IMG/VR virus record: IMGVR_UViG_3300044676_005314
Location: 7,807 to 71,806 of that record
DNA from: a virus
Taxonomy: Duplodnaviria > Caudoviricetes
DNA length: 64,000 nt
Direction: 5' to 3' (one strand)
This document shows, one piece after another, positions 8,279 through 64,000 of this stretch. The translations under genes were made by a program, and so were the position numbers. The notes below the pieces were generated by a model, which was not told where the DNA came from, searched no databases, and was given only the letters and a program-made list of their open reading frames with translations. Position 1 is the first letter of the stretch. The number at the start of each line of letters is the position of its first letter.

Positions 8279-8463
8279 GTATATACCACTATATTTAGTA
8301 TGTTTTTTGACACCACTATATATTGTGTAGTTCAGTTTTGACACTACCGTAGTATGATTCTGACACTACTGTAGTATGAATTTGAGACTACCGTAGTACC
8401 GCTGATGACACTATAACTATACTAATATAACTAGACATATTAACTATAAGAATATAACTATTT
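8279..8463 (+). repeat. left copy of an inverted repeat of at least 185 bp (origin-like)
   Basis: reverse complement of 63815-64000, one-T indel in a homopolymer. Confidence 0.95.
8339..8463 (+). other. iteron array plus AT-rich tract, putative replication origin
   Basis: TGA(C/G)ACTAC(C/T)GTAGTA at 8339, 8361, 8383 (22-bp period, internal ACTAC-N-GTAGT palindrome), partial copies at 8308 and 8406, then four TAACTA repeats in AT-rich DNA. Confidence 0.6.
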
Positions 8464-8495
8464 GCATTCTAGTAAAGATTTGTTATACTGAAAGT

Positions 8496-8563
8496 ACTCA
8501 TTGCACCTCAATGACAGTGGTGGGAGAGATTTTCTCAATTTTCTCTCCCCACTACTTTTTTTT
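8496..8563 (+). ncRNA. putative sRNA of about 68 nt
   Basis: TTGCAT-16-TGT-TATACT(8484); TCATTG/CAATGA hairpin; 13-bp terminator 8517-8555 plus T8. Confidence 0.55.
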
Positions 8564-8573
8564 AAGTAATGAT

Positions 8574-8602
8574 TTGACTTTCCAAACAATGTGTGGCAAT
8601 AT
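8574..8602 (+). promoter_or_regulatory. sigma70-type promoter
   Basis: TTGACT-17-CAATAT with TGG. Confidence 0.8.
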
Positions 8603-8620
8603 AGATAATCGGAGGTAGTA

Positions 8621-9328
8621 ATGACAAATGAAGACAATATATACGAACTTCAACCAATACAAGCTAACTTAGATGATATTAAGTCACCTATAGAGCAAGT
8701 AAAGGAAGATGGTAACATAGGCCTAAATTGGGACCAATGGATAGAATGCGTTCAATTTATGGCCATAAGATACACAAGCGGTACAGATACACCTAGTTCT
8801 TGGGGAGAAGTAAAACTAAGAGCAATGTATCAAGACCTACAATACTTTACCTATGAAGATGTTCAAAAGGCAATAATAAGACTCCACGAAGAGGGAAGAA
8901 GTTTTGCCCCGAACAGTTCACAGATTATAGGAAAGTTAAATGCATTAAATTCCCAACAGGTTATGTCAGCGTCTCAAATAGAGAGGTTGTCTAAGGGTCA
9001 GTACAGCGAATGTAAAGGTGGTGCACAGCACGAATGGGCAGATTGGGGATGGTTCTTTGATGAACAAGGATATCCAATGTTCTTAGAGGTTTGCTGTTCT
9101 ACACTAGGACCTAATATGCCTACTTGTTTAGCAGAGCGAACGAAATCAAATCCAAGCGAAGCTAACAAAAGTATGCACCCGGGTTTTCATATGACTAGAG
9201 AAAAATTCATAGAGAGTATGAAGAAGCTCAAGTTGAGTGACAAGAAACAAGATGAACTATTGGAATACAGAAACAGGCTACTCACAGAAGAAGAAGTAGC
9301 AAAATTAGGAGTTACATATGATAAGTGA
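8621..9328 (+). CDS. putative replication-associated protein (helicase loader/inhibitor-like segment plus Cys/His region)
   Basis: MYQDLQYFTYEDVQKAIIRL.EEGRSFAPNSSQI resembles the G39P/DnaB-loader-type L...y..V..A......FaP motif; lies next to the iterons. Confidence 0.4.
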   Translation: MTNEDNIYELQPIQANLDDIKSPIEQVKEDGNIGLNWDQWIECVQFMAIRYTSGTDTPSSWGEVKLRAMYQDLQYFTYEDVQKAIIRLHEEGRSFAPNSSQIIGKLNALNSQQVMSASQIERLSKGQYSECKGGAQHEWADWGWFFDEQGYPMFLEVCCSTLGPNMPTCLAERTKSNPSEANKSMHPGFHMTREKFIESMKKLKLSDKKQDELLEYRNRLLTEEEVAKLGVTYDK

Positions 9329-9986
9329 TTTTATAGACAATAATGTAAATGAAGATAAGTCGGTACCGATGTTCTACGCTATGACTTTCTACAATGATTT
9401 GAGACAACAAATCTATGACAAGAATGCAATCTTTATATTAAAAGATAAATTAGATTGGCTTGGTTACAATGGAACAAAACAAGATATGGATGAAGACTTA
9501 TGTGTTTCAGCTGTATTTGCTTATGTTGAACTTTGTATGGCCGAGCTATTGTATGAAGGTATGAGAGACATCAAGAAGATGGATGACTTATACCAAGCTA
9601 CTTACATTAGAGACCATATTCAAAAAGGATTTAAGAAGTATAAGACTTATGGGAATTGGCCCGAAGATATGAAGAAAGATACGATAAGACATTCTTTATG
9701 GAATTATGAAGATGAAGTACTAGCTATGCAAAACAGTGTTAAAAATATTTTAGCAAGTGTTATGAGAGCAGTAGGAGTAATCAATAGAGAAAAAGATAAA
9801 GTTTCTATGAACCATATGCATATGATTTATGATGAACTTTCAGAGGAACTAAAAGAAATGCCTTTACCAAAACTTATGGAAGATGTAGAAGATGATGAAA
9901 AAACTTCTCTAGATTTGATTTCATCTAGTATGTTTTCAGATAACTATATTGAAAATGTGGTTGACTTTTGTTTTAACAAGGGTTAA
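9318..9986 (+). CDS. hypothetical alpha-helical protein
   Basis: AGGAG RBS, overlaps previous stop. Confidence 0.75.
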   Translation: MISDFIDNNVNEDKSVPMFYAMTFYNDLRQQIYDKNAIFILKDKLDWLGYNGTKQDMDEDLCVSAVFAYVELCMAELLYEGMRDIKKMDDLYQATYIRDHIQKGFKKYKTYGNWPEDMKKDTIRHSLWNYEDEVLAMQNSVKNILASVMRAVGVINREKDKVSMNHMHMIYDELSEELKEMPLPKLMEDVEDDEKTSLDLISSSMFSDNYIENVVDFCFNKG

Positions 9987-9995
9987 AATTATCTT

Positions 9996-10375
9996 GCGAT
10001 AATCTTATTACATAGTAGTAAGGTTATGCAGGACAGTGCGCCTGTGGAAAATGATTCGATGGGAAGGTATTGGTTTGGACACTTGTACTATTCATTTGGG
10101 AGCAATACCCAACACAGGCACTAGGGAATCGGAAATATAACTAAATTTGTTTATGTACGGATTTAAATACTAAATGTAGTGTATTAGTAAAAGTTATAAT
10201 TAGATTCCCTTATTTTTACCCTCACACATTATTTAGATAATGATGAATAAGTATTAGTTAGTGAGGTGAAACGGCGAGCAATTGAGAGGGTATAATGGAA
10301 ATGTCGGTGGATAACTAGCAATAGTTGTCCCTTTGCCGATACCCTCCCATCGTCGGCTCTCTTAGGAGAGCCGTA
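9996..10375 (+). ncRNA. putative large structured ncRNA (RNA-E, about 380 nt)
   Basis: TTGACT(9961)-17-TAAAAT; at least six helices, including GGATAACTA-GCAA-TAGTTGTCC and a terminal CGGCTCTC/GAGAGCCG. Confidence 0.6.
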
Positions 10376-10411
10376 TCTAAAATGACTTTACAAAATTTTT
10401 TTTACTTTGAC

Positions 10412-10440
10412 TTGACAAACTAAATATACTATGGCATACT
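10412..10440 (+). promoter_or_regulatory. sigma70-type promoter
   Basis: TTGACA-17-CATACT with TGG. Confidence 0.8.
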
Positions 10441-10474
10441 TAATATATAACGATTAGAAAGGTAGGTATAACCT

Positions 10475-10702
10475 ATGGATTACGATATTAAAGATAGAAT
10501 CATTTCAGAAACAATGTCTGAATATGAAGATATTGACATTAAAAGAACTACAAATGGATTATCTGTAGAAATCCATTTCTCTAGTGACGTAACTAAAGAT
10601 GAAGCAATTGCTTGGTTTGAAGATACTTTATCAAAAGTAGAAAGCCAAAGTTTTTTAAGAGCAAGTCTTGATTTATGGATTACCCCAAAGGAGGAAGTAT
10701 GA
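10475..10702 (+). CDS. hypothetical protein
   Basis: RBS, first gene of a coupled chain. Confidence 0.7.
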   Translation: MDYDIKDRIISETMSEYEDIDIKRTTNGLSVEIHFSSDVTKDEAIAWFEDTLSKVESQSFLRASLDLWITPKEEV

Positions 10703-10884
10703 GTCAAACAGTTTTTTGGAGTAACGAAGCTGAAGATGGTGAAGGCTATGGTGGAATGTTTGTTCGTTCTGACTTAGGTAAGACTTTCACTAAATGGACT
10801 GACAAAGGATTACAAATTGTTGGTATTGTTATTGACGACTCTAATGAAGTAGAGTTCATTCTTAGGGATAAAGAAGAAGAATGA
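10699..10884 (+). CDS. hypothetical protein (start revised to MSQTVF)
   Basis: AAGGAGG RBS, ATGA overlap. Confidence 0.7.
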   Translation: MSQTVFWSNEAEDGEGYGGMFVRSDLGKTFTKWTDKGLQIVGIVIDDSNEVEFILRDKEEE

Positions 10885-10979
10885 AAAAAGTCGAATACGA
10901 ATTTTGGTACGATGACCAAGGTAGAGTTGTAGGTAAAATACCTATTACTGATGTTGTCGGATTAGATGAGGAAGAATAA
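10881..10979 (+). CDS. 32-aa peptide
   Basis: ATGA overlap, hand translation MKKVEYEFWY...DEEE. Confidence 0.5.
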   Translation: MKKVEYEFWYDDQGRVVGKIPITDVVGLDEEE

Positions 10980-11125
10980 TGGGTGGAATATTATTATGCT
11001 CAAAGTGTGATAGCCGTTGGCATTCTCACGATGGTACAGGTTCTTATGTTAATGATGAACATTACTGTGAAAACTGTACTCAAGAGATAGAAGCTCATTG
11101 GTTATTAAAAAGTGAGGAAGAATGA
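10979..11125 (+). CDS. 48-aa zinc-finger-like peptide
   Basis: CSKC...CENC; TAATG overlap. Confidence 0.6.
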   Translation: MGGILLCSKCDSRWHSHDGTGSYVNDEHYCENCTQEIEAHWLLKSEEE

Positions 11126-11283
11126 AAAAACATACAGTATTCTTGTTAGGAAAGCTAACTTATCTAACAGATAGTGAAGATGAAGCTGTAGCTTTTGCAG
11201 AAAAAGATTTAAAATTTCTGCACCCTAAATACAATATGGAAGTTAGTGGATTAATAGCAATCGACAATATGGAGGAAGAATGA
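11122..11283 (+). CDS. 53-aa hypothetical protein
   Basis: ATGA overlap, GAGGA RBS. Confidence 0.6.
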   Translation: MKKHTVFLLGKLTYLTDSEDEAVAFAEKDLKFLHPKYNMEVSGLIAIDNMEEE

Positions 11284-11405
11284 AAGATAACCCTTTTGAT
11301 GGGCCTAGTATAAAAATAGGTTCTGATGAATTTAAAGAAATGATTATGCAAGTTATGATTAACAAACATAATGACGCAGACGAGGATTTCGATTTAAATG
11401 CGTAG
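11280..11405 (+). CDS. 41-aa hypothetical protein
   Basis: ATGA overlap, GGAGG RBS. Confidence 0.55.
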   Translation: MKDNPFDGPSIKIGSDEFKEMIMQVMINKHNDADEDFDLNA

Positions 11406-11488
11406 AAGATTTCGTAAAGAACAACACGAGAGAACTTATCAGATAAATTGGAATCATAGTTTGCCCGTTTATGGTGAAGGGAAAAAAG

Positions 11489-11587
11489 ATGAACCGACAT
11501 CAAAGACGAGCAAGTAAGTCTAAAAAGAAAACACAATATCGAGGTTTGAGTAAGAAACAAATTCTTACGCCCGATAGTTGGAGATAA
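11489..11587 (+). CDS. 32-aa basic peptide (MNRHQRRASKSKKK...)
   Basis: hand translation; MNRxQRR opening is common in small phage proteins. Confidence 0.45.
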   Translation: MNRHQRRASKSKKKTQYRGLSKKQILTPDSWR

Positions 11588-11596
11588 GGGGGAATA

Positions 11597-11983
11597 GTGA
11601 CTGAAGAAAATCACGATTTACATAAAGTAGGTATGGGTAAACTATACGAAAAATATATGATGGCTAAAAATCTATCAGATATGTTAGATGTAGCTTATTC
11701 ATATAACACTGAAACAAAAAGGAACGAAATAATTCTTATCATTAAAGATGGTGAAAGAACAATTCCTTTGGGCAACTTATGGTCTGCAGAAGACTTTGCG
11801 TTGCGTGACTATAAATTAAATGATTCATTGATTATGTCTAGAGTCTTTAAACAGTATGAATCTGTTGACGAAAGAAGTACTCTTGATGAATTCAATGACG
11901 AGTATCATCCTGTTGATAAAAACTATGATGATATTTGGACGTTTATCGATGGTGCTAGACAAGCATTAGACGATACAGAATAA
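11597..11983 (+). CDS. hypothetical protein
   Basis: GGGGG RBS before GTG. Confidence 0.7.
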   Translation: MTEENHDLHKVGMGKLYEKYMMAKNLSDMLDVAYSYNTETKRNEIILIIKDGERTIPLGNLWSAEDFALRDYKLNDSLIMSRVFKQYESVDERSTLDEFNDEYHPVDKNYDDIWTFIDGARQALDDTE

Positions 11984-12078
11984 ATACTTTCAGACTACCG
12001 GCAGAATACAAGTAATACCTACCTACTCATATACCGTTGGTAGTCTGTGAGTATCTATTCGTGAGAATGAATAACTAG

Positions 12079-12804
12079 TTGAAAGGTGCAGAAATGCCTA
12101 ATCAAAATAACAATAGAATAGATACTGAAGATAGTTATGGCTATAACTATCAAACAGACAAATGTGCTGTTCGTAAATGTAAGTGGGAATCTCACGATAC
12201 AAACAACGAAGGTGCCTTAGATTTAATAACACAAGGTGGTTATGGTGATTTTATGGATTACTATGACGAATCTCCTGTGTATTTTCGTCTCTGTCATAAA
12301 CACGCACATCAATTTTCAAGTTGGTTAAATAACACAAATGTCTTACCAAGACACAACGGACACGCCCACAATGGTAGTGAACCGGGTTTTTGGTATGGTC
12401 ATATTGGTTGGGACCAATACACTTGGTTGTCTTACCTAAATAACTTTTTCTATCATCTCCTTAAGGAGAACTTAAAGTTTGCAATAGGTGCTTTTAATAG
12501 ACAATTACGTCATCACATAACTTGGACAAAACAGAATATTAACGACAAAACTACTCCCGTTGTTAAGAAAAGATTTATCTTTAAACTGTTTTTCCTTGAT
12601 AAAGCTTATAAAGGTTTTGTTAACACAAAATTAAGACAAGCTAAAGTAATGTATCGTAATTGGATAAAGAAAACTTATCGTAATTATATCTCTCTAGATA
12701 GGGAAATATGGGAAAAAGTATTACAAGGTAAACTGTCTGACAAAGATTTAGAAATAATGGCTCATATCACTGATGCCAATAGGTCTAACTCTGAAGAAGA
12801 ATAA
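12079..12804 (+). CDS. hypothetical protein with Cys/His cluster (start possibly ATG 12094)
   Basis: CAVRKC...LCHKHAH...HNGHAHNG; long open frame. Confidence 0.7.
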   Translation: MKGAEMPNQNNNRIDTEDSYGYNYQTDKCAVRKCKWESHDTNNEGALDLITQGGYGDFMDYYDESPVYFRLCHKHAHQFSSWLNNTNVLPRHNGHAHNGSEPGFWYGHIGWDQYTWLSYLNNFFYHLLKENLKFAIGAFNRQLRHHITWTKQNINDKTTPVVKKRFIFKLFFLDKAYKGFVNTKLRQAKVMYRNWIKKTYRNYISLDREIWEKVLQGKLSDKDLEIMAHITDANRSNSEEE

Positions 12805-12808
12805 CTAA

Positions 12809-12831
12809 GCCCCCTAGAAATAGGGGGTTTT
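12809..12831 (+). terminator. intrinsic terminator
   Basis: GCCCCCTA-GAAA-TAGGGGGT plus T run. Confidence 0.75.
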
Positions 12832-12851
12832 CTTCGTTATATAATATAAGT

Positions 12852-14111
12852 ATGTCTAGAGATATACTTGAATCAGTAGCTTCAGAACAAGAACAAGTTT
12901 TTGACTTAGAATTTCCAGACCTTCACGAAGCTCAGCAAACGGTAAGAGATGACCCCGCACGTTGGAAAATACTTTGTGCAGGCCGTCGTTTCGGTAAATC
13001 ACGACTTGGAGTACAACTTTGTTTAGAAGAAGCACTCAAAGGTGGCCGTGTTTGGTGGGTAGCACCTACTTTCGCTATTGCTAGAGTTGGTTGGAGAGAT
13101 GTGGTAGCTGCAGCAAATGAGTTTCCAAAAGAAGCAGGCGTAGATGTACGCATTGGTGATATGGAAGTTAAATTTCCCGGCGGCGGTTCTATAGCAGTTA
13201 AATCTGCCGATAACCCTCAGCGTCTTAGAGGTGAAGGTTTGAACTATCTAGTTATGGATGAGGCCGCATTCGTTAGAGAAGAAACTTGGACAGAAGTATT
13301 AAGGCCTACACTTACAGAAAACAAAGGTTCTGCATTATTCATAAGCACCCCTATAGGAATGGACAATTGGTTTTTTCATTTATGGGAGAAAGCAGATAAA
13401 GCTGATGATTGGGCTAGATTTCAATTTCCTACAGTAGCTAATCCTATTATTGACCCTGCTGAAGTTGAATCAGCTAGAGAAGACTTAGGTGAATTAGTAT
13501 TCGCTCAAGAGTATCTTGCAGAGTTTATATCTGAAGGTGCTCAGATGTTTAGAAGTCATTGGTTTAACTATTACAAACTTGGTGTAGGAACACTTTGGTG
13601 TGAAGGTGAAAAATTTGACATAAATAATGATTTAGTAAAGTTTGCTACAGTAGACTTAGCAGCATCAACAAAAGAATCAGCTGACTACACAGTCATATCA
13701 GTATTTGGTTACCATATGCAATCAGACAGATTGTTTATGATTGATATGATTAGAGACAGACTTGAAGCACCCGACATTGTACCTCAAATAAAAAGAGCAA
13801 TAGGTATTCATAATCTTGAATGGGTTGGAATTGAAAAAACAGGATACCAATTAGCTATAGTTCAGTTTGCTAGAAGAGAAGGTCTCAGAATCAAAGAATT
13901 AAGGGCTGACAAAGACAAGCGTTCACGAGCACTTCCTTTGTCTGCTAAGATGGAAAGAGGACTTGTATATTTTCCTCAAAATGAGGAATGGGTAGGTGAA
14001 GTTGAGAGAGAGCTCTTAACTTTCCCTGTAGGTACTCACGATGATATCGTGGATACTCTTGCCTATGCTTGTCTTAGTAGCGGAACGAAAAGAAAATGGG
14101 AAGCATTTTAA
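12852..14111 (+). CDS. terL: terminase large subunit (leaderless)
   Basis: Walker A AGRRFGKS, Walker B LVMDEAAF, nuclease motifs VDLA..DYT and HDDIVDTLAY; TATAAT 6 nt before ATG. Confidence 0.97.
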   Translation: MSRDILESVASEQEQVFDLEFPDLHEAQQTVRDDPARWKILCAGRRFGKSRLGVQLCLEEALKGGRVWWVAPTFAIARVGWRDVVAAANEFPKEAGVDVRIGDMEVKFPGGGSIAVKSADNPQRLRGEGLNYLVMDEAAFVREETWTEVLRPTLTENKGSALFISTPIGMDNWFFHLWEKADKADDWARFQFPTVANPIIDPAEVESAREDLGELVFAQEYLAEFISEGAQMFRSHWFNYYKLGVGTLWCEGEKFDINNDLVKFATVDLAASTKESADYTVISVFGYHMQSDRLFMIDMIRDRLEAPDIVPQIKRAIGIHNLEWVGIEKTGYQLAIVQFARREGLRIKELRADKDKRSRALPLSAKMERGLVYFPQNEEWVGEVERELLTFPVGTHDDIVDTLAYACLSSGTKRKWEAF

Positions 14112-16625
14112 ATGGCTGAAGAGAAAAGTTTTTATAGAAAAACAGTAGATTACTTACAGAGACCACCACAAAGATTAGAAGTTAAAAGAGGGCCTCTAGA
14201 TAAACACGAACAAGTACAAGGCTCTGTTTGGGGATACAATACACAATCCGGTTATTTTCCACAAAAATTAATTGATGACTTAGGAGATGGATTAGGTAAT
14301 TCAGCTGTAGTCGCTTGTCTTAATGTTTTAGCAACATCATTCGCAGAACCTCAATTAAAAGTTTATATAAAAAATGACCAAGGTAAGTTAGAACAAAAAG
14401 CTCATCCATTAGAACAATTACTTCAAAGACCAAATGAATTTATATCCGGTTCTATTCTTTCACACTACATAGTTACTTCTTTATCTGCTCACGGAGATGC
14501 TTTCTTAATGAAAGTTAAAGATGGTCAAGGTAAAGTCGTTCAGTTAGTTCCTTTAATGCCTAGTTATGTAAAGGTTAGAGGAAACACTCGTGAATTAATT
14601 ACTCATTATGAATATCACGCAGTACAAAAAGGCAACGGGTTGCATCAAGAATATATTGAAATACCTAGAGAAAATGTAGTTCACATTAGACAAGGAATGG
14701 ACCCCGATGACCACAGAAGAGGTTTCTCGCCACTTCGCTCAGTTATGAGAGAGTTGGCAGGAGACGAGGCAGCAGGACAATTCGCTGTTGCTTTGCTACA
14801 CAATATGGCTGTCCCGGGAGTTATCTTAAGTCCAAAAGATGACTCTATGGGCGGGCCTACAAGAGAAGAAGCAGAAGGAATAGCACAATCTTTTAAATCT
14901 AAATTTTCCGGTGCTAACAGAGGTGCGCCAATGATTATGACAGGTGCTATGGATGTAGATGTAGTTTCATTTACCCCGGAACAATTAAACTTAACTGCTT
15001 TAAGAAGATTACCGGAAGAAAGAGTTTCTTCTGTTTTAGGTGTGCCCGCAATTCTCGCCGGCCTCGGCGCTGGATTGGACGCAGCAACATACAACAATAC
15101 TCGTGAACTAAGAGAGTTTTTTACTGAACAAAAAATGATTCCAATGTGGTCTTCTGTAGCAGATGAACTTACACATCAATTATTACATCAAGATTTTGTA
15201 GATAGTAACTACGAATACTTCTGTGCTTATGACTTAGACCAAGTTAGAGCATTATCAGAAGACAAGAAAGAACAAGTCCTAACAATGAACTCCGCGGTGC
15301 AAGGGGGCTTCGTCACAATAAGCGAAGCTAGACAAGCATTAGGTTTAGAGGTTGATGATTCTCACGATATCTATTTAAGACCTTTAAATATGGTAGCTGT
15401 GCCGGAAGGAGAGACAGGAATTGTGACTCCTATTGAAGGAGAGCCTGCCCCTTCGGCACAACCACCATCTGATGAAGATGAGCCGGAAGAAGATGATGAA
15501 AAGGCAACTTTAAATACATCTCGATTCCAACCGGAGGTTCGTAGAAGCAAGAGAAGAATAGGAAAGAGAAAATCTGTTATAATTGACACAACAATGGAAT
15601 TTAAAGCATCAGAACAAGACAATATAGTTTTATCAGAAGAAGAAAAAGCTGCTGCTGTCTCTGCTAAAGTAAAAAAAGTATTACAAAAGAAAGTAAAAGA
15701 CCACAATGCAGGAAGTTCAAAATATAAAGTTACTTATGGAAAGTTGGCAATTATATTCAGACGAGGTGTTGGTGCCTATAGAACGAACCCAGCTTCAGTG
15801 CGAGGTAATGTTTCTTCGGCAACACAGTGGGGAATAGCCCGTGTCAACGCTTGGTTAAAAGGACTTAAAGGTTCTTTCCCAAGAAAACCTTTTGATACCG
15901 ATTTATTACCAGCAGGACATCCTCAAAAAAAGAAACAAGATAAAAAAGCTGCATCAGTTAAAGCTGGAGATACAGTTTCTTGGTCAATAAATAAAGACCC
16001 CGACCCACCTTCAACAGTTCACGGTGTAGTTACTTCTGTCAATAGTGAGAAGAAAGAAGCAACTATGATGGTATGGGCAATTATGGATGATGGTTCACAT
16101 CAAAAAACTGATAGAAGCGTTACTCAACCAATTTCTAAATTAAAAAAAATTAAAGATTTTCGTAAAGAATCTAAAGCTAAAAAAGATAAACCAACCAATT
16201 TCCCTTCATCCGGTGATAATCAGAAAATTAGCTTAAGTAATTCTAAATTCAAACAGTTTCCAGATAAAAGATATGTTGATAATTTGAAAGAAAATTATCC
16301 AGCTATATGGAGAAGAGCAGGTACCGGAGGTAATCCACCTACTTCGTTTACTGGAAACGATGCCTACAGAAATTGGAGTAAGTATAAAGCTGGAGACAGA
16401 AGTTCATCAGTTTTATCTTGGGTTAAAAGACGAGAAAGTTTTATGGCCCGACACCAAGGAAATACCAGACTGAACGGAATTATTGCTGTAATGAAATGGG
16501 GAGGTGTGACGAAATCTGGAGTGAGTACTATGAAAAAGATAGTTAATGAGCAAAAGAAAAAAGAAGATGCTCGTAAAAAGAAAGCTCACGAAATGTTGTC
16601 TCACACTGACGATTTAACAAGTTAA
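14112..16625 (+). CDS. HK97-family portal with a long C-terminal multi-domain extension
   Basis: NSAVVAC..VLA, HGDAF, HIRQ...GFSP, NMAVPG.IL, LRRL..E.V..VLGVP, TYNN motifs in the first ~440 aa; position after terL. Confidence 0.92.
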   Translation: MAEEKSFYRKTVDYLQRPPQRLEVKRGPLDKHEQVQGSVWGYNTQSGYFPQKLIDDLGDGLGNSAVVACLNVLATSFAEPQLKVYIKNDQGKLEQKAHPLEQLLQRPNEFISGSILSHYIVTSLSAHGDAFLMKVKDGQGKVVQLVPLMPSYVKVRGNTRELITHYEYHAVQKGNGLHQEYIEIPRENVVHIRQGMDPDDHRRGFSPLRSVMRELAGDEAAGQFAVALLHNMAVPGVILSPKDDSMGGPTREEAEGIAQSFKSKFSGANRGAPMIMTGAMDVDVVSFTPEQLNLTALRRLPEERVSSVLGVPAILAGLGAGLDAATYNNTRELREFFTEQKMIPMWSSVADELTHQLLHQDFVDSNYEYFCAYDLDQVRALSEDKKEQVLTMNSAVQGGFVTISEARQALGLEVDDSHDIYLRPLNMVAVPEGETGIVTPIEGEPAPSAQPPSDEDEPEEDDEKATLNTSRFQPEVRRSKRRIGKRKSVIIDTTMEFKASEQDNIVLSEEEKAAAVSAKVKKVLQKKVKDHNAGSSKYKVTYGKLAIIFRRGVGAYRTNPASVRGNVSSATQWGIARVNAWLKGLKGSFPRKPFDTDLLPAGHPQKKKQDKKAASVKAGDTVSWSINKDPDPPSTVHGVVTSVNSEKKEATMMVWAIMDDGSHQKTDRSVTQPISKLKKIKDFRKESKAKKDKPTNFPSSGDNQKISLSNSKFKQFPDKRYVDNLKENYPAIWRRAGTGGNPPTSFTGNDAYRNWSKYKAGDRSSSVLSWVKRRESFMARHQGNTRLNGIIAVMKWGGVTKSGVSTMKKIVNEQKKKEDARKKKAHEMLSHTDDLTS

Positions 16626-16662
16626 AATAAGTTATAGTATCGAAAGGTATATGAGTAGGTAA

Positions 16663-17940: not shown

Positions 17941-17965
17941 GCTAACAATTTTGGAGACAAATATA

Positions 17966-53511: not shown

Positions 53512-53581
53512 AAAATAATACAAAACTGTCATACCTTGTATGTAAAATGCTATAATAGTATTAACGCGAACAAGGAGAGTA

Positions 53582-53794: not shown

Positions 53795-54048
53795 TGAATA
53801 AATTTGATGAGGCGTTAAATGCATTACACGCACAGAGGGTTCAGAAACTTAAAATAGATAAAATATTAGCAAAGCTCAATCGTGGTTCAGACGAAGAAAA
53901 AGAATATGCAAGTACTCTTGAAACTGCACTTTTAAATACTGCTTATAATAATCAGACAATTGTAGATGCTTTAAAATCAGTTGATATTGAAATATCTTTA
54001 TCTGCTGTTAGAGCTTGGAGGATGAAAAGAAATGACACAGAAGCCTAA
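53794..54048 (+). CDS. small HTH-like protein
   Basis: I..ALKS..I.ISLSAVR.WR pattern. Confidence 0.55.
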   Translation: MNKFDEALNALHAQRVQKLKIDKILAKLNRGSDEEKEYASTLETALLNTAYNNQTIVDALKSVDIEISLSAVRAWRMKRNDTEA

Positions 54049-55282: not shown

Positions 55283-55323
55283 TATAAAATAGACAATATA
55301 TAAATGTGTAGTACCATATACAT

Positions 55324-56115: not shown

Positions 56116-56116
56116 G

Positions 56117-56662: not shown

Positions 56663-56672
56663 GAGGTATTAA

Positions 56673-56885
56673 ATGCCAGATTACTGGAGAACAGCTCTAA
56701 TTAGAGCAGCAAGAACTGCAGCACAAACTTTTGTGGCTGTGATGATGGCTAACCAAGCTGGAATGTTCGAGGCAGATGTTATTATGGCTGCAAGCGTAGC
56801 AGCTGCATCAGCACTCGTTTCTGCAATTCAGAATGCATTAGAAGATGCACCATTCCCATTTATGTCTAAGATTCCTAAAGGATAG
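56673..56885 (+). CDS. holin, r1t-like
   Basis: W..A.IRA.RT.AQT..A, two TM segments. Confidence 0.8.
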   Translation: MPDYWRTALIRAARTAAQTFVAVMMANQAGMFEADVIMAASVAAASALVSAIQNALEDAPFPFMSKIPKG

Positions 56886-57019
56886 TCAAGATATAATCGG
56901 TTATAATAGATAGAGATGGTCGGGATATTACCCGACTATTTCTATTTATGGAGGTTATATAAATGATTTGTGGATTATGCAGCGGTGTTTGCTCAAATTG
57001 TCCTATTGGGTCAAAGTAA

Positions 57020-57280
57020 ATGACACAAAGGTTACAAGAAGGTTGGAGCCTGTATTTAAATATAGCTAAGAGAATATTAGCTGTGTTTATAGCACAAAGC
57101 CTATCAATATTAGGTGCCGGTTCGTTAGTAGGTATTGACGTATACCAATCTGCGTTGCTAGCTGGAATAATGGGGGTTGCACACGTCTTAGAGATGTTGG
57201 CAAGAAAATATATAGACGATGGAAAAATTACTTTAGAAGAAGTTAACGAGGTTTTCAATAGCGTTCCTACTAGAAAGTAG
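57020..57280 (+). CDS. second holin-like membrane protein
   Basis: two TM segments, DDGK.T.EE.N tail. Confidence 0.55.
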   Translation: MTQRLQEGWSLYLNIAKRILAVFIAQSLSILGAGSLVGIDVYQSALLAGIMGVAHVLEMLARKYIDDGKITLEEVNEVFNSVPTRK

Positions 57281-57283
57281 TAG

Positions 57284-60046
57284 ATGCTTAGGTCAATTAA
57301 TACATTTCTTAGATTAGCAATTGTTGGATTACTTATATATCCTTTACCTATTGCTATGGCTGACCACGTTCCAACACAACCACCTTATGGTACAAATGCT
57401 AGTGATGATGCTAACGCAGGAACTTTTACTATTGGTATATTAGGTTCAGATGGATTTGAAGATAGTCCACCAGAAAGTTATACAATATTCTTTAGTCAAT
57501 CTAGTGGTGTAACTGAAACAAATAGTTTTTGTGTCACTACTTCTTTTGGACATTCCACAAACACTTGGCAGTATCACACATTTAGTCTCGACAACTTAAA
57601 GTATTATTTTAATAACCCATCAGGAACAAATATTTATTATAGAGTTAGGTCTAACAACATAACTGATTACAGTTTTTCTACATTAACAGACCAAAATACT
57701 TGGAATTTATATGCAGGTACACCATTTGATTATAACCAAACAAATTGGTCTGCACCAACAGGAGATAATGCTTGTGATGACCCAAAGATACTTGATGGTA
57801 TAGGTGACCCAAGTAACTTAACTACTTCAGCTAATTTACACGATGGAAGTATAACTATTGACTGGGACGCAGCACCAGACAGATATGAATATAGTGCAGA
57901 ACGATACGCGATAGGTTTCGACAAAGCAAATCCACCTATGTATGGTGTAGCGACAGGTAATGTTGGCGATAGTAATGCTTTAAATACAGAATACACTTTT
58001 AGTAAGTCTTACTTAGAATCAGCTCTTAGTGCGACAGTTGGAGACACTATATACTTTAAAATAAGGTCAGACAACGATACAAACTCTAAATACTCTAATT
58101 GGACTTCTATAGCTAGTTATACGATACAAGATGTAGCTAGTGGTGTTACTAATTTATCTATTTCTAATACTGAGTATCAAGGTTTAGATTTTAGTTGGAC
58201 ACAACCCAATACAGGTTGGTCAGCAGTAGAGTCTTATAAAATTGAATATAAACTATCTAGCGAAGAAACATACACAAGTATTGATATTGCAGACGCTAGT
58301 GCTACTTCTTACACAATAGAAGACATAGCAGCAGGAACTTATGATTTTGTTGTTTATTCTTGCACACAGAGTGGTAGTTATTGTCACGGAGGTCAAGCAG
58401 GTCCAGTAACTAATTATGAAGTAGTATCTACTACTGCTACAACAACTATTGTTTATACTTTAGGACCACCTATGAATACTACTGCTACTAATGAATATAA
58501 CTCTGGTGTAAAAGTAGATTGGGAAGCACCTAATACAGGAAATGCAACTGCTGATACTTATGAACTATATTACAGAACAAGTCCTACAGATGAAGTAGTG
58601 ATTTACAATATAAGCAATACTGAATATACTATTCCTTATGCAAACATTTCTAATGGAACTTACACCTTTTCAATTAGAGCTTATGACTCTGTCAATAATG
58701 TTTATAGTGGTTACTCTACTGAGCCTACGCTAGCAGTATTCAATAAAAAAGCCCAAGATGACTCAGATGCAGCAGCCCAAGCAGCTTATGAAGCCGAACA
58801 AGCCCGTATAGCCGAAGAGGAGCGTAAAGCTGAGGAAGCTCGTAAGGCTGAGGAAGATAGAATAGCTAAAGAAAAAGCTGAGGAAGAAGCTCGTATTGAG
58901 GCAGAGCGTAAAGCTGAAGAAGAGCGTTTAGCTGAAGAAGAGCGTCTTCGTTTAAAAGAGGAAGCTAGAATCAAAGCTGAAAAAGAAGAGTTAGCTCGTC
59001 TCGAGGCTGAAGCAGAAGCTAAGATACAAGCTGAACTAGAAGCATCTATACTTAAAGATGTAGATACTGATAATTTATCAGACGATGAAAAAGAAGATTT
59101 AAAAGTATTAGTTGATACGATACAAGAGTTACAAGAAACATTAGAGGTTATTGAATATGAAGAAGAAATTTTTGAGTTGGAAGAAATTGTTATTGTTGCT
59201 CCTAGTACCACAACTACTACTACAACAACGCTCCCAATTAAAGAAGATTTTGCTGATGAAGAAACCGAACTTGATGAAGTGGAGATTGAGCCACTACCTA
59301 GTGAGGAAAGAGATACAGAGATACAACTTACAGAAGAAGAAGTAGAAATTCTCGTTGAGGAAACTGAAGAAGCTATCGCAGAAGTTATTACTATTGAGAT
59401 AGTAGAAGAGGAGCCTATCGATACCGAAGGTTTAACAGAGGAGGAAGTCGTTGAAGCAGAAGAAAAAGCTGACCAAGAGCTTACAGAAAAAGTTGAAGCA
59501 GCCGTTAAAGAATTACCTACAGAAGAAAAGGTTAAAGTTGTACAAGCCGTTGCAAAAACCAAGATACAGAACTTAGGTACTGCTGATAAAACTACACAAA
59601 AGGTAGTTCAAGCTGTTGTTAAAGAAGTAACTAAAGTCGAAACAGTTGCTACTTTATCTGAGGAACAAAAGACAGAAGTTGGTCAAGTATTAGGTTTTAC
59701 CGAAGAAGAGGCCTCTGAAGACCTTACAATCATTGCAGAACAAGCATCTAAAGATGAGAATACAGCACAAGCATTAGACGAGTTTGTTGAAAGGTCAATT
59801 GCAAGTTCTGATGTAGAAAACTTTACACTTGCTGATGTAGTTACAGAGGTACAAATAGAGGCGTTTATCAGCGACCCTATAGGTGCTATAATAGATGTAG
59901 ATTTAGAAAGTATTGACTTTGCGACTATAGGTCAAGATATGACCCAAGACCAAAGGCAAAAATCTAAAGAAGTAGTAGTTCCAGTGATTATTGCTTCGCA
60001 AATAGTTGCACAGGCAGGTGCACTCATAACTAGGAGACCATTTTGA
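57284..60046 (+). CDS. large membrane-anchored/exported protein with FN3-like repeats, E/A/R coiled coil and acidic stalk
   Basis: N-terminal signal, W..P...Y...Y repeats, AEEER coil, hydrophobic C-terminus VVVPVIIASQIV. Confidence 0.8.
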   Translation: MLRSINTFLRLAIVGLLIYPLPIAMADHVPTQPPYGTNASDDANAGTFTIGILGSDGFEDSPPESYTIFFSQSSGVTETNSFCVTTSFGHSTNTWQYHTFSLDNLKYYFNNPSGTNIYYRVRSNNITDYSFSTLTDQNTWNLYAGTPFDYNQTNWSAPTGDNACDDPKILDGIGDPSNLTTSANLHDGSITIDWDAAPDRYEYSAERYAIGFDKANPPMYGVATGNVGDSNALNTEYTFSKSYLESALSATVGDTIYFKIRSDNDTNSKYSNWTSIASYTIQDVASGVTNLSISNTEYQGLDFSWTQPNTGWSAVESYKIEYKLSSEETYTSIDIADASATSYTIEDIAAGTYDFVVYSCTQSGSYCHGGQAGPVTNYEVVSTTATTTIVYTLGPPMNTTATNEYNSGVKVDWEAPNTGNATADTYELYYRTSPTDEVVIYNISNTEYTIPYANISNGTYTFSIRAYDSVNNVYSGYSTEPTLAVFNKKAQDDSDAAAQAAYEAEQARIAEEERKAEEARKAEEDRIAKEKAEEEARIEAERKAEEERLAEEERLRLKEEARIKAEKEELARLEAEAEAKIQAELEASILKDVDTDNLSDDEKEDLKVLVDTIQELQETLEVIEYEEEIFELEEIVIVAPSTTTTTTTTLPIKEDFADEETELDEVEIEPLPSEERDTEIQLTEEEVEILVEETEEAIAEVITIEIVEEEPIDTEGLTEEEVVEAEEKADQELTEKVEAAVKELPTEEKVKVVQAVAKTKIQNLGTADKTTQKVVQAVVKEVTKVETVATLSEEQKTEVGQVLGFTEEEASEDLTIIAEQASKDENTAQALDEFVERSIASSDVENFTLADVVTEVQIEAFISDPIGAIIDVDLESIDFATIGQDMTQDQRQKSKEVVVPVIIASQIVAQAGALITRRPF

Positions 60047-60240
60047 AAGTAATTAAAAAAATGGTGGGAGTAGGCGACTGGATTATTGACGTTATAAAAG
60101 AGTCAATAGCACAGATTTTCACCCTCCTTGGGTTTTACATTGCTTGGTTCACATTGACCGGAACCGCCCAAGACATAGTAGGTATAGCAATAGTTATATC
60201 TACGGTAATATGGCTTTTAACAATAAGACTTAGAGATTAA
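60043..60240 (+). CDS. small two-TM membrane protein
   Basis: TTGA overlap, hydrophobic. Confidence 0.65.
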   Translation: MKVIKKMVGVGDWIIDVIKESIAQIFTLLGFYIAWFTLTGTAQDIVGIAIVISTVIWLLTIRLRD

Positions 60241-60342
60241 GGTATAATAAAGTATGTGTTATATAAATCAAAAAGAAGATGGTTCATTCATACAGATATG
60301 CAATTGCAAGTATGGTAGTGAGCATTGTGAGGATAGAAACTA

Positions 60343-60534
60343 ATGTCTAGTTCAAGTAATAGTAATGGTTTAACACAAAAAGAAATGTTGATGATGGTTT
60401 TAGAAGGACAGGAAAAAATTAATGAGCGTATTGACTCGCTCCACGAAAAAGTCAACGCAAAGATTTCAAGACAGGAACTCGCAGGATGGGTTGTCGTTGT
60501 AGGCACACTCTCCGCACTATCAACTCAAATGTAA
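60343..60534 (+). CDS. coiled coil plus C-terminal TM protein
   Basis: sequence pattern. Confidence 0.6.
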   Translation: MSSSSNSNGLTQKEMLMMVLEGQEKINERIDSLHEKVNAKISRQELAGWVVVVGTLSALSTQM

Positions 60535-60558
60535 TCAGTCGCCTCGAAAGGAGGTATT

Positions 60559-60699
60559 ATGACAGAAATCATATTAGTATTAACAGTCTCACTTATATCT
60601 ATTGGTCTTCTTATATGGGTAGGTGTAATGAGCAACAAATTTTTTAAGTATTTTAAAGAGATAGCACAGGAAATTTATAATGAGCAGAAAAAAAATTAA
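60559..60699 (+). CDS. 46-aa single-TM protein
   Basis: AAGGAGG RBS; hand translation. Confidence 0.6.
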   Translation: MTEIILVLTVSLISIGLLIWVGVMSNKFFKYFKEIAQEIYNEQKKN

Positions 60700-60853
60700 T
60701 AGATGTGATGAGTGTAAACAGCCACTCAAACACATACAGACAAATCAATGGATGTGTGACCAATCACCAAGTAATTGTATATTATCGTTAAAAATTTTGT
60801 TTTTAAACAACCCGGAAGATGAAGAAGAATGAGCCAATGGATAATTATGTTAT

Positions 60854-61039
60854 TTGCAGTTACGTTGCTTTATGTATCTGCTTATATTGGTTCTTCAAAA
60901 TGATGCAGGAGTGAGTCCTCCTTGCCCCATATGTCAGTCAGTTCTATTCGAAAGACACGCAGGACTTTACTGCTATAATGCAAAGTGTCCAGCATTTAGC
61001 CAAAAAGTAGTGGCTTGTTGTGAAGGAGGGGCGTGTTAA
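60854..61039 (+). CDS. small zinc-ribbon protein (start uncertain)
   Basis: CPIC...C..AKCP...CCEG. Confidence 0.55.
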   Translation: MQLRCFMYLLILVLQNDAGVSPPCPICQSVLFERHAGLYCYNAKCPAFSQKVVACCEGGAC

Positions 61040-61899
61040 AAACAATATTTGTAAAAATACCATCATTAGATGATAAAGAGTTAGTACCTACATTAAAAGA
61101 TTGCTTAAACAAAGCAGAGCATCCAGAAAGAGTTTATATAGCCGTATCTTTAATTTATAAAGATAGAAAAAGCTTAGACGAATTAATGATTTTTAAATCT
61201 CAATATGCAAACGCAAATGTAAAAATAGTTACTAGAGAGTTTGATATAAATTATATGGGTGTAGGCAAACAGCGAAAATTGGTTGGTGATATGTATGATA
61301 GTCAAGATTATGTATTGCAAATAGATTCTCATACTTGGTTTTGTAAGAATTGGGATACTAAACTTATAGACCTACACGATGGTGATGACAAAACAATTCT
61401 TACAGCTTACGCAGGGCAATATGGTTATGTAGATGGAATTAGAAAACCAATTGGAGATGGTAAGTTTAGATACACAACAATAGTAGAAGGTGATAGACAG
61501 TTCACACAGTTTACAGATGCTTGGGTAGATGAACCTATATACGATGATGATAGAGAATTTATACCTATCTCTAAGTTTTGTGCAAATTTTGCTTTTGGTA
61601 CTAAAGAGTGGGCTTTAAAAACAGGTTTAGTAGCTGAGTCAATTTTTTGGAGTGAAGAGCCTTTGCAAACAGAATATCTTAAAATAAATAAATTTAATTT
61701 ATTATATCCAAATATAGATGAACCAATTATATGTCATTTATATGCTCAACACATAACAGAGCAAAGTAGAAGAGAACCTTACACAAATTACCTAACAGTA
61801 GAGGAACACGAATATTTAGACCATTACGATAGTGAGGTGTATCACGGGCATATGAACCGAATAAAAAACTATACGCATATACAAGAATCTAGGAGGTGA
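61033..61899 (+). CDS. Gnt1/GT60-like glycosyltransferase (hydroxyproline O-GlcNAc transferase family)
   Basis: IFV.I.S.DD.EL..T.......A..PE.VYI.V; Y.LQIDSH..F..NWD..LI; NF.FG, EE and I.HLY motifs. Confidence 0.85.
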   Translation: MLKTIFVKIPSLDDKELVPTLKDCLNKAEHPERVYIAVSLIYKDRKSLDELMIFKSQYANANVKIVTREFDINYMGVGKQRKLVGDMYDSQDYVLQIDSHTWFCKNWDTKLIDLHDGDDKTILTAYAGQYGYVDGIRKPIGDGKFRYTTIVEGDRQFTQFTDAWVDEPIYDDDREFIPISKFCANFAFGTKEWALKTGLVAESIFWSEEPLQTEYLKINKFNLLYPNIDEPIICHLYAQHITEQSRREPYTNYLTVEEHEYLDHYDSEVYHGHMNRIKNYTHIQESRR

Positions 61900-61901
61900 T
61901 T

Positions 61902-61964
61902 GTGCCGTATCATAGAGGTAAGAAAAAGCCAAAGTCAAATGGTAAAAAACCTAAAAAAAGGTAA
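61902..61964 (+). CDS. 20-aa basic peptide MPYHRGKKKPKSNGKKPKKR
   Basis: AGGAGG RBS before GTG; terminator follows. Confidence 0.5.
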   Translation: MPYHRGKKKPKSNGKKPKKR

Positions 61965-61971
61965 ATGAGTA

Positions 61972-61998
61972 AGGCCCCTTCACAATAGGGGCCCTATT
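61972..61998 (+). terminator. hairpin terminator
   Basis: AGGCCCCT / AGGGGCCC stem. Confidence 0.6.
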
Positions 61999-62057
61999 CT
62001 TACTATGACACGAGACCATAGATGATTACCCTAATATTATAAGGCTATAATGAATAT

Positions 62058-62387
62058 ATGTTTTACTATAAAGTAGATGTTTTAAGGATTGTAGATGGAG
62101 ATACGGTAGATGTTAGAATTGATTTGGGTTTTAATGTGTGGCATAAATGTCGTGTACGACTCTTGGGCATTAATGCTCCAGAATCACGAACAAGAGATTT
62201 GGAAGAGAAAAAACGAGGGCTTGCTGCGAAACAGTGGCTTATTGATAAAGTAGAGTTCAAAGATGTGGAAATGCAATCTCACGGAACAGGTAAGTACGGT
62301 AGAGTACTAGGTGAATTATTTGTCGAAGGTGTAAATATAAATAAACTTATGGTCAAAGAAGGCCACGCTGAAGAATATAATGTTTAA
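62058..62387 (+). CDS. SNase-like (thermonuclease) protein, leaderless
   Basis: RIVDGDT.D...DLGF....RVRL.GI.APE; GKYGR.LG; TATAAT 6 nt before ATG. Confidence 0.92.
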   Translation: MFYYKVDVLRIVDGDTVDVRIDLGFNVWHKCRVRLLGINAPESRTRDLEEKKRGLAAKQWLIDKVEFKDVEMQSHGTGKYGRVLGELFVEGVNINKLMVKEGHAEEYNV

Positions 62388-62772
62388 AAAAATAAAAGAT
62401 AATCTAGGTTTAATAGCAACAGCTATAGCTCTTATGGGTTCTGTTGGTGCAGGTTTATCTACTGCTGGAGACATAGTCAATACACTACAAAACATTGATG
62501 ACAGAATGAATCAAGTTGAAGTAGATTTTGAAATGCTTAAAGATAGCACAATGGTACAAGGCGATATAGCTGTACTGTTTGAAAAAGTGCAGAAACTAGA
62601 AATAGATAATGATACTAACCAATATGTTCAAATTCAAAAATGGGAATGGGACGATATGAAAACACAAGTTATTCGTCTTGAATCACAACTTATGGACCAA
62701 GAACAAGATTTAATGGTAGTCAGAGAAATACAAACTAGATTAGCTTGGATAGAAGCTAATTGCTGTCGATAG
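62380..62772 (+). CDS. N-terminal TM plus coiled-coil protein
   Basis: LGLIATAIALMGSVGAG then heptad repeats. Confidence 0.65.
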   Translation: MFKKIKDNLGLIATAIALMGSVGAGLSTAGDIVNTLQNIDDRMNQVEVDFEMLKDSTMVQGDIAVLFEKVQKLEIDNDTNQYVQIQKWEWDDMKTQVIRLESQLMDQEQDLMVVREIQTRLAWIEANCCR

Positions 62773-62786
62773 CTGATATAAAGAGG

Positions 62787-63012
62787 GGGTGGGCCCAAGT
62801 TAAATACACTTACCTCAGTCTTTCGACACAGATAGATTTTTCACCTATCTAGGTTCAGCTTCTTTCCCACTAAGGCCGGTGAAACGGGGACTACCGAAGT
62901 TATATGGTAGTACACTATCCCCTTGCCTGCGAACTATAACAGACTTGCAGTTCAACTGCCCAGTTTAGCTACTGAGAAGCATCTCAGTGTATCAGAAAGG
63001 AGGAACCCACCC
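62787..63012 (-). ncRNA. putative structured ncRNA (RNA-D, about 226 nt)
   Basis: GC-rich, ORF-free; closing helix GGGTGGGTTC/GGGCCCACCC (two G-U, minus strand only), GTC-GAAA-GAC and four more hairpins. Confidence 0.5.
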
Positions 63013-63019
63013 TTACAAC

Positions 63020-63403
63020 TCAAAGAATGTCTTTTTCGTCCTCTTGCAGCATCATTTGTGCTACTGTTATTCTTCTACTTCCAAGTTTGGCTAACTCTTT
63101 AACCATTTCAATGAACACATTTAATTGCCCGGTTCTAAATTTATAGATAGGATGTTTGGTCTTACCAATGTCAATACCGCTTTCAAACTTTTTACAGTAC
63201 ATCTCAATCTCTTTAGCTCTTGCGTAGTAAGCTACTGCTAGCTCATACATTGTAGATACACCGTTAGATACGGGTGTTTCTTCTCTACCAAAGATAACAT
63301 TGTTGTAAGACTGAAGCTCACGTTCAAAGTTCCTAATCTGTTCCATAGAGGCACCTATGTTCTCTATTTCGTTAAACTGTACCGGTAGTAAGTTATTTTT
63401 CAT
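63020..63403 (-). CDS. hypothetical helical protein
   Basis: AAGGAG RBS. Confidence 0.75.
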   Translation of the reverse strand: MKNNLLPVQFNEIENIGASMEQIRNFERELQSYNNVIFGREETPVSNGVSTMYELAVAYYARAKEIEMYCKKFESGIDIGKTKHPIYKFRTGQLNVFIEMVKELAKLGSRRITVAQMMLQEDEKDIL

Positions 63404-63538
63404 TATTCTCCTTGTCTATAATATATCCATAGAGAAAGTTTAAATACTGAGTTCGCTTTTCTGCAGGTACCCAACTGTTAATAATGACAGCGACAAACAT
63501 CAAAAGTTTTTTGATTTTCCTGTCAGCAGCTTGTTCGT

Positions 63539-63775
63539 TCATTCTTCCTCTCTTAGCACCATCACATATTGGTCTTGTAGTTCAATGAGGTGGTCTTCAT
63601 ATTGTAGCACATATTTTTCTACCTTGCTTAGTGTGTCAGACAAAATAAACTTGGCAGTTCTTGCATCGGGCTCGGGAATCTTCATCAGCTCTTGTTCAAA
63701 TTCTCTTAGCTCATCAATTATTTCTGTTAGTTCATCTATAGATTCTAGTAGTTCAATTAAAAGTATTGGTCTCAT
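63539..63775 (-). CDS. acidic coiled-coil hypothetical protein
   Basis: open frame, first gene inward of the right repeat. Confidence 0.65.
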   Translation of the reverse strand: MRPILLIELLESIDELTEIIDELREFEQELMKIPEPDARTAKFILSDTLSKVEKYVLQYEDHLIELQDQYVMVLREEE

Positions 63776-63814
63776 CTAATAATTATAAACCATAATTTAG
63801 AAATCACATAAGTT

Positions 63815-64000
63815 AAATAGTTATATTCTTATAGTTAATATGTCTAGTTATATTAGTATAGTTATAGTGTCATCAGCGGTACTACGGTAGTCTCAAATTC
63901 ATACTACAGTAGTGTCAGAATCATACTACGGTAGTGTCAAAACTGAACTACACAATATATAGTGGTGTCAAAAAAACATACTAAATATAGTGGTATATAC
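63815..64000 (-). repeat. right copy of the inverted repeat (truncated by the window end)
   Basis: reverse complement of 8279-8463 including all iterons. Confidence 0.95.

Follow-up and report, generated by a model that had tools for sequence, protein, structure and literature searches.

We analysed a 64,000-nucleotide (nt) stretch of a tailed-phage genome from IMG/VR (record IMGVR_UViG_3300044676_005314, positions 7,807 to 71,806; hereafter the window), in which a composite element that follows the small terminase gene, terS, recurs as an inverted copy 55 kb away. Independent assemblies of the same strain contain the intervening 55-kb segment in both orientations relative to terS, and they also contain a second fork, on the other side of the early genes, where an 11.3-kb segment absent from the record likewise occurs in both orientations. 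The feature is thus larger than originally found, being a family-wide dumbbell genome present in JGI, ENA, Tara and Logan assemblies. We give roughly even chances to a tripartite linear genome like that of the Burkholderia phage Matilda, here of ~84 kb, in which short inverted repeats would form the termini and the isomers would flip-flop.

An inverted repeat at the end of the record

A sequence-only reading of the window had reported that positions 8279-8463 equal the reverse complement of 63815-64000 save for one homopolymer indel. Sequence and self-BLAST (E = 1e-89) agree on this, 185 of 186 nt being identical, with six T (T6) at 8303-8308 and seven (T7) at 63970-63976 as the sole difference between the copies. 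The sharp inner edge that it described was also found, identity ending abruptly at 8463/8464 and 63814/63815, plus two T common to both sides, and the three palindromic repeats of 22-bp period and the AT-rich TAACTA tract that it placed inside the repeat can be read from the sequence. Its statement that the match runs off the window on the outer side holds in part: the 71,806-nt record itself finishes at base 64000 of the window. The match therefore runs off the contig, and not the window alone, and position 8279 marks where the contig gives out, and not a boundary seen in the repeat. When both repeat regions were compared by BLASTN with 50,697 phage records, no match was found. The layout of the window is as follows.

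1..8278, right-hand 8.3 kb of the 17,212-nt core (early region, U1), with many small genes and TTGACA-type promoters on both strands
7425..7826, plus strand, small terminase subunit TerS (133 aa), last core gene; phrog_4102 (E = 2.7e-36), N-terminal helix-turn-helix (HTH)
8279..8463, internal copy of the element (T6)
8464..63814, bidirectional arm U2, 55,351 nt, both ends of which abut the element
63815..64000, distal inverted copy of the element (T7), finishing at the final base of the record

Both ends of the 55-kb arm join the same core end

We aligned the Logan k=31 contigs of four estuary runs to positions 1-20000 of the record and found a three-way fork exactly at window position 8463/8464 in the four runs. 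Contigs from runs X1, X3 and X8 cross 8279 unbroken and all end at record position 16269 (window 8463), including one from X1 that covers record 1011-16269. At the fork, the core-plus-element sequence is overlapped by exactly 30 nt by two contigs, one containing the start of U2 and the other the reverse complement of its end (loose end AACTTATGTGATTTC...), indicating that both ends of U2 attach to the same end of U1. No further partners were seen on either side of this fork in the k=31 contigs.

Longer contigs contain the same two joins, which we designate A, the orientation of the record, and B, where terS and the element are joined to the opposite end of U2. The B join occurs in two JGI contigs of the same strain, of 75.3 and 8.6 kb. 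The larger (L163, Ga0610007_02931; 75,304 nt) is 100.000% identical to window positions -1125 to 8463 and then 99.98% identical from 64000 down to 53020; the smaller (L166) is likewise 100% identical up to 8463, and beyond this point the two match at 99.97-99.98% from 64000 downwards. The B join was also found in relatives of 98-99% identity (L055/L165, L164, L167 and L168) and in L053, L049 and L051, and the A join in the record, L054, L177 and L180. Distant lineages, with terS genes 70-82% identical, also contain both joins, A in L003-L005, L007, L009-L011, L013, L014 and L016, and B in L006, L008 and L012/G002 (G002 being a contig of 56.7 kb). For instance, L007 and L008 are 99.9% identical over 11,119 nt up to the fork, a common part that includes a promoter and a ribosome-binding site (RBS), and unrelated beyond it.

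Contigs reading out of the arm stop within the element with an overlap of about k or k-1 (30, 123-127 or 141 nt) in several assemblers, core contigs end at 8462-8464, and core-only, arm-only and pass-through contigs exist in JGI, ENA, Tara and Logan assemblies. Three MEGAHIT k141 contigs (L164, L167 and L180) cross the 185-nt element in one or the other orientation, which suggests that one junction can dominate a sample. A contig of 60.9 kb (G006) comprises the whole arm without terS; it stops just short of the element on both sides and has no inverted repeat between its ends. An exact-pattern search for the B junction in IMG/VR and JGI metagenome contigs, collections that may withhold near-identical records, returned no match, the junction having been recovered by other routes. 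Library chimeras were ruled out as an explanation: assemblies from JGI, ENA, Tara and Logan all contain the same junctions, as do lineages that differ in junction sequence.

The proposal that the 55-kb segment is invertible therefore stands as regards its two orientations, with contigs of the same strain and of related lineages joining terS and the element to either end of the segment. Likewise, when sequence beyond 64000 is aligned to the reverse complement of positions 1-8278, as had been suggested, the path continues, through the B-type contigs, as the inverted early region. The further suggestion that the repeat could reach far into the early region is borne out only insofar as B-type paths run 5-10 kb into it (up to 9.6 kb into U1), but depth gives no support for a second full copy.

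A second fork and a missing replication module

A second fork, which marks the start of the core, lies 943 nt to the left of the start of the record. It is contained in a 28.6-kb contig, found via the first open reading frame (ORF) of the record, which is 100% identical to record 1-10295 and reaches 10 kb further left. The module beyond the fork (U3, the left arm; 11,287 nt) is absent from the record, was found in both orientations, and codes for a Rad52-like protein, an HTH_36/O-like (DnaD-like) initiator, a single-stranded DNA-binding protein (SSB), and PAPS-reductase-like and ParB-like proteins; none of its called genes matched a recombinase Pfam family. Three pairs of contigs (L200/L201, L202/L203 and L206/L207) have cores 99.96-99.99% identical to the right of this fork. 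Within each of the first two pairs the common U3 stretch is inverted, and in the third pair opposite ends of U3 adjoin the core. The same inversion of U3 is seen between species, in G005 versus G001.

The core also occurs by itself, in a fork-to-fork contig (Ga0453785_0001379) of 17,212 nt (943 + 16,084 + 185), and three Tara scaffolds of 17.5-17.7 kb end at 8462-8463, that end alone having been read. Two forks and core-only contigs of 17,212 nt define a dumbbell graph, consisting of a U3 loop, the 17.2-kb core and a U2 loop.

CheckV scores the 71.8-kb record as 100% complete, yet it is devoid of the 11.3-kb replication module, and assigns the same completeness to the 61-kb G006, which contains only the structural arm; for other contigs of the family, the expected length works out at ~58 kb, close to that of the arm. 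The CheckV reference genomes may themselves represent arm contigs in which overlaps at the fork were taken for terminal repeats.

Close to the left fork, L158 contains tandem 32-nt repeats (TCCGGAGTTTTTTGAG..CCTAATGCG; L158:9413-9476), ~365 nt to the right of the fork and 515-578 nt to the left of record base 1, and three units similar to these lie at the homologous place of G001. Further into the core, at record 797-1044 (~6.8-7 kb to the left of window base 1), short k-mer contigs of high depth form a tangle in every run, with joints and alternative ways of continuing. Short contigs inside the tangle reached 2.9x (X1) and 4.4x (X3), and the 2 kb to its left were at 2.6x core depth in X8; the tangle is either a strain-variation hot spot or the point where a longer left repeat has its outer edge. 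A further loose-end sequence, at record 1044, matched none of the loci retrieved.

Structure and conservation of the element

The element starts 453 bp beyond terS in this phage, and it is composed of three modules, followed by a promoter-like site.

8253..8335, plus strand, two to three imperfect 'ATACCAC...TAGTATG' repeats, the first unit lying outside the 185-nt identity
8338..8400, three iterons of 22-bp period with the palindromic core ACTACNGTAGT, cores at 8343, 8365 and 8387
8414..8460, plus strand, four direct TAACTA words starting at 8414, 8428, 8441 and 8455 (spacing 14/13/14 nt)
8461..8489, plus strand, promoter-like site TTTGCA-17-TATACT, preceded by TG, which spans the fork and is directed into the arm

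A three-module element follows terS in 11 of the 11 relatives examined. The imperfect repeats are present in all related lineages, and the TAACTA words are kept in all of them, always downstream of terS; in this phage the array ends at the inner edge of the repeat. The iteron sequence varies, other lineages having different iterons in the same place; in the window, ACTACNGTAGT cores are absent outside the element and its copy, and none of 100 shuffles reached 7 hits. The TAACTA array is immediately followed by the fork in this lineage and in that of L010-L014; in that of L006-L009 the fork lies ~85 nt further on, past the shared promoter and RBS. Such a shifting boundary looks like the limit of sequence homology, and not like a site of fixed cleavage or crossover. 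All related lineages also contain, at 8160-8260 between terS and the element, a conserved TTAGGG..ACCGACAGAAAGGAGG block that includes a strong RBS and a mini-ORF of 12 codons.

A predicted linear genome with invertible arms

In the genome structure that we favour, the 17.2-kb core would comprise the early genes and end with terS and the composite element, and two bidirectional arms would be attached to it, a structural and lysis arm of 55.4 kb on the right (8464-63814) and a replication and recombination arm of 11.3 kb on the left. At its outer end, each arm would have a short inverted copy of the core end to which the arm is attached, of 186 nt on the right and ~100 nt on the left, for a predicted genome of 102 + 11,287 + 17,212 + 55,351 + 186 = 84,138 nt. 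Homologous recombination between the internal and terminal repeats of each pair would flip the corresponding arm, generating up to four isomers, and could be catalysed by the Rad52-like annealase, SSB and exonuclease of the phage itself. The element would supply the homology for flipping as well as the upstream region of the promoters reading into the arm. We infer, then, that the genome physically ends at the distal copies, that the arms are flipped by recombination, and that the element acts as a terminase recognition or terminus site and promoter region, and not an origin.

In three long contigs that are unrelated to each other, the terminal stretch is a short inverted copy of the core end nearby, of 186 nt in the record, 102 nt in the 28.6-kb contig and 87 nt in G005. 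In the study that produced the 102-nt copy, other contigs have their first base exactly 127 nt inside the element, suggesting that the assemblies of that study used k=127; because the copy is shorter than this, the end looks like a true dead end and not like a fork. The terminal copy of the record has T7 and the internal copy T6, even in the B-type contigs L163 and L166 of the same strain, as expected of two distinct copies, and this fits outer parts of the copies that are not exchanged by crossovers in the inner 155 nt. The T7 allele was found in all other strains.

Depths were taken per contig, at k=31 and with strains mixed, and are therefore soft figures. The core and the arm were at 72.5 and 123, respectively, in X1 (with zero mismatches to the record), at 40-69 and 96 in X3, and at 86 and 86 in X8. 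Core depth thus does not exceed arm depth, which argues against a duplicated core, since strain sharing would not pull a duplicated core below the arm. In X3, a 286-nt contig bearing the element had a depth of 58, about 1.5x that of the adjacent core contig and below that of the arm (96).

Several observations weigh against the favoured structure. The depth of the element contig in X3 (58 versus 96) is lower than expected if every arm had a second copy, and the evidence is at contig level throughout, with every run represented by k=31 contigs. The terminal copies (87-186 nt) are about one read in length and could be assembler spill-over across the fork, and T7 could derive from co-occurring T7 strains. 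Two contigs of assembly 3300066022 seem to have ~8-10 kb of core on both sides of an arm. A junction joining the proposed termini end to end was not found in IMG/VR, and the end of the record 24 nt past the copy-specific T7 is suggestive, at most, of a physical terminus.

These observations bear on two other structures. Genomes might have a single element each, with real variants in arm orientation and with the last 186 nt of the record representing assembly spill-over from a minority isomer or a T7 strain. This would agree with an outer 'boundary' that is merely a contig end, with k=31 contigs lacking a second outer flank, with T7 being the allele of every other strain found, with an element depth in X3 that is under that of the arm, and with MEGAHIT k141 contigs that cross the element as if one junction dominated. 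We nevertheless consider it unlikely, because a second-strain bubble at k=127 should, judging from the sequence, run 127 nt past the T-run, and not 24 nt, and because three unrelated long contigs end in similar short inverted copies. Moreover, no known mechanism inverts a terminal 55-kb arm without a repeat, and the promoter and RBS of the element are present at both ends of the arm in the L007/L008 lineage, a state that would be hard to keep if one end were always bare.

Alternatively, the whole 17-kb core could be a long inverted repeat, present twice in a circular or linear genome of ~103 kb whose 55- and 11-kb single-copy segments flip through recombination of the two cores, as in chloroplasts or herpes simplex virus (HSV). 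A long inverted repeat also yields a dumbbell graph, and B-type contigs do reach 5-10 kb into the core. Additionally, the small arm of a 33.4-kb contig is flanked on its two sides by core sequence that is identical over at least 1,616 nt, with 8.4 kb more not seen, and in the 75.3-kb contig a further 8.45 kb could lie past the far end of the arm; look-ups with the proteins from the start of U2 and with the large terminase subunit, TerL, did not return the latter contig. However, this structure predicts a core at twice the depth of the arm, and the ratios found, with strains mixed, were 0.6, ~0.5-0.7 and 1.0 in X1, X3 and X8, respectively. MEGAHIT could not cross the fork were both junctions always equimolar, and a look-up with TerS gave one place in the 75.3-kb contig, a weak argument because the look-up may list one place per contig. 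We therefore regard duplication of the core as very unlikely. Hairpin telomeres of the N15 type were rejected, since a fold-back end joins adjacent sequences and here the joined sequences are 55 kb apart.

Packaging, replication or regulation

The right-hand element is tentatively assigned a role in packaging or as a terminus, which from its sequence context appears likelier than a role as origin. Repeated sites beside the small terminase gene, as in terminase recognition sites (pac or cos), are present, and a role in terminase recognition or at the terminus is favoured because of the linkage to terS and of the copy at the probable genome end. A purely regulatory role seems quite improbable.

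The element could instead be a replication origin, made of iterons and an AT-rich tract and placed at both arm ends as 'twin origins', which would be compatible with any of the structures considered. It does contain three palindromes two helical turns apart next to the AT-rich TAACTA tract, that is, the direct or phased repeats and adjacent AT-rich region of iteron-type theta origins, and the adjacent gene is predicted to have a G39P/DnaD-like helicase-loader fold. Twin origins also have a precedent in phage SPP1, which has two, oriL and oriR, sharing initiator boxes. Conversely, the element is always tied to terS and not to an initiator, the neighbours of the iterons are terS and the G39P-like loader gene where a theta origin should have its cognate initiator, and the genes for the HTH_36/O-like initiator, SSB and Rad52-like protein are in the other arm. 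The spacing of 13-14 nt between TAACTA words is more like a protein-binding array than a simple unwinding element, and the left-arm junction has tandem repeats of its own, the 32-nt units next to the replication module, which would be a better origin candidate than the terS-linked element. The GC-skew check proposed in the sequence-only reading was run and showed no switch at the element, GC skew being uninformative in this case. With the element ~450 bp after terS and the initiator more than 17 kb away, the earlier claim of theta-type twin origins is not supported, the sole origin-leaning point being the G39P-like neighbour, and we consider an origin at this place doubtful.

Slightly less than even chances would be assigned to a combined proposal built on the favoured linear structure, that these are ~84-kb linear genomes of widespread marine and estuarine tailed phages whose two arms hold all genes for virion and replication functions, in which each arm flips independently around the core via repeats of 0.1-0.2 kb and the right repeat is a terminase-recognition or terminus site.

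Genes of the core and the right arm

The exact 133-aa TerS is indexed in 135 blocks of public assemblies, among them Tara scaffolds, assemblies made with MEGAHIT in ENA, and samples from estuaries and ponds in JGI; these phages are widespread in marine and estuarine waters. U2 contains the helicase-loader-like gene and genes for TerL, portal, protease, capsid, tail, fibres, lysis proteins including an endolysin, an exonuclease and glycosyltransferases. TerL is encoded at 12852-14111, 4.4 kb downstream of the element, with portal, protease and capsid genes next, and it shows only 22-28% identity to its counterparts in cultured phages. The genes nearest to the two ends of the arm are the following.

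8621..9328, plus strand, 235-aa protein, first arm gene; no Pfam or PHROG match, N-terminal domain resembling the SPP1 helicase loader G39P
63021..63776, minus strand, three small genes (78, 49 and 127 aa) reading inward from the far end of the arm, as mapped to the window from the gene calls of L163

An AlphaFold model of the 235-aa protein (pLDDT 73) aligned in VIA-align to 1no1_A with Z 8.9 and an rmsd of 1.9 Å over 67/67 residues, 2 Z units above the next row, and an atlas search gave a lead to PF11417/PF06992; Foldseek of the model against PDB found nothing significant. Several invariant Cys and His residues in the C-terminal half of the protein suggest a possible metal site. A PDB sequence search with the neighbouring 222-aa protein gave no match. 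The three small genes at the other end have homologues in L006, L008 and L012.

Resolvase (PF00239) and integrase (PF00589) domains are absent from the record, in a search whose positive controls were detected. A type-B polymerase (pPolB family) was not detected in a search that had no positive control, and Rfam and tRNA scans of the window were empty or gave chance matches only. A fibre-like ORF of 2,201 aa at 36571-43176 contains many diverged units of ~75-78 nt and larger repeats of ~1.6-1.8 kb. Near-identical terminator hairpins (CCCCTAGAAATAGGGG plus a T-run) are located at 6516-6545 and 12804-12833, 6.3 kb apart; a loose end at record 14349 was discarded as a fork inside the core because it reflects only the similarity between these terminators.

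Comparison with known systems

The Burkholderia jumbo phage Matilda assembles into three connected contigs that form a dumbbell graph, with coexisting isomers in which a core is joined to terminal segments in both orientations and the genome is linear, with the distal copies of the repeats at its two ends (bioRxiv 10.64898/2026.10.21.760668). The 267-kb genome of Matilda, a myovirus, comprises a 220-kb core and two arms, of 1.3 and 25 kb, and its repeats measure 1.5 and 18 kb. Coverage peaks, PCR and PacBio sequencing demonstrated this architecture, in what its authors consider the first such description, and the Sarumanvirus phages BcepSaruman and BcepSauron probably have the same layout (bioRxiv 10.64898/2026.10.21.760668). 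The phage described here shares the dumbbell graph and a core end joined to both ends of a segment, in its case at contig level only. It would differ in its size of ~84 kb, three times smaller, in arms that make up 80% of the genome and include all virion genes, and in repeats of ~0.1-0.2 kb, ten to a hundred times shorter, the right one of which is the terS-adjacent iteron/TAACTA element. Published reports of the dumbbell layout are so far confined to a few jumbo phages, and the present case would be a variant of it.

In class E genomes, such as that of HSV, unique segments flip, and the junction and terminal repeats carry the cleavage and packaging signals. HSV and chloroplast genomes resemble ours in having unique segments that flip between inverted repeats, and here the element sits beside terS; their repeats, however, span kilobases and are at double depth, whereas the core described here is single copy by depth, a soft measure in mixed strains. 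The G segment of phage Mu and the C segment of P1 are also flanked by inverted repeats and occur in two orientations in phage populations, but they are internal, measure 3-4 kb and are inverted by the serine invertases Gin and Cin at short crossover sites; the segments described here are terminal and of 55 and 11 kb, and resolvase and integrase domains are missing from the record. The lambda origin and SPP1 oriL and oriR are similar to the element in their helically phased repeats by an AT-rich tract and in the adjacent helicase-loader-like gene, and differ in that here the initiator gene is not adjacent and the candidate element is linked to terS in every relative. Finally, the protein-primed genomes of phi29, PRD1 and Cp-1 also have inverted sequence at the genome end. 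Their termini, however, are copies of each other, whereas here each terminus would copy a different internal site.

Implications

Genomes of this kind split into three contigs at the forks, and an arm contig can pass for a complete genome, so that viral catalogues may misjudge the size, completeness and gene order of the lineage. If the favoured structure is correct, it raises the questions of how the terminase packages a genome whose ends copy internal sites and of the purpose of flipping. It would also represent a herpesvirus-like segment-inversion design in a bacteriophage of ordinary size, and would extend dumbbell, segment-inverting genomes from a few Burkholderia jumbo phages to an abundant uncultured group from marine and estuarine waters.

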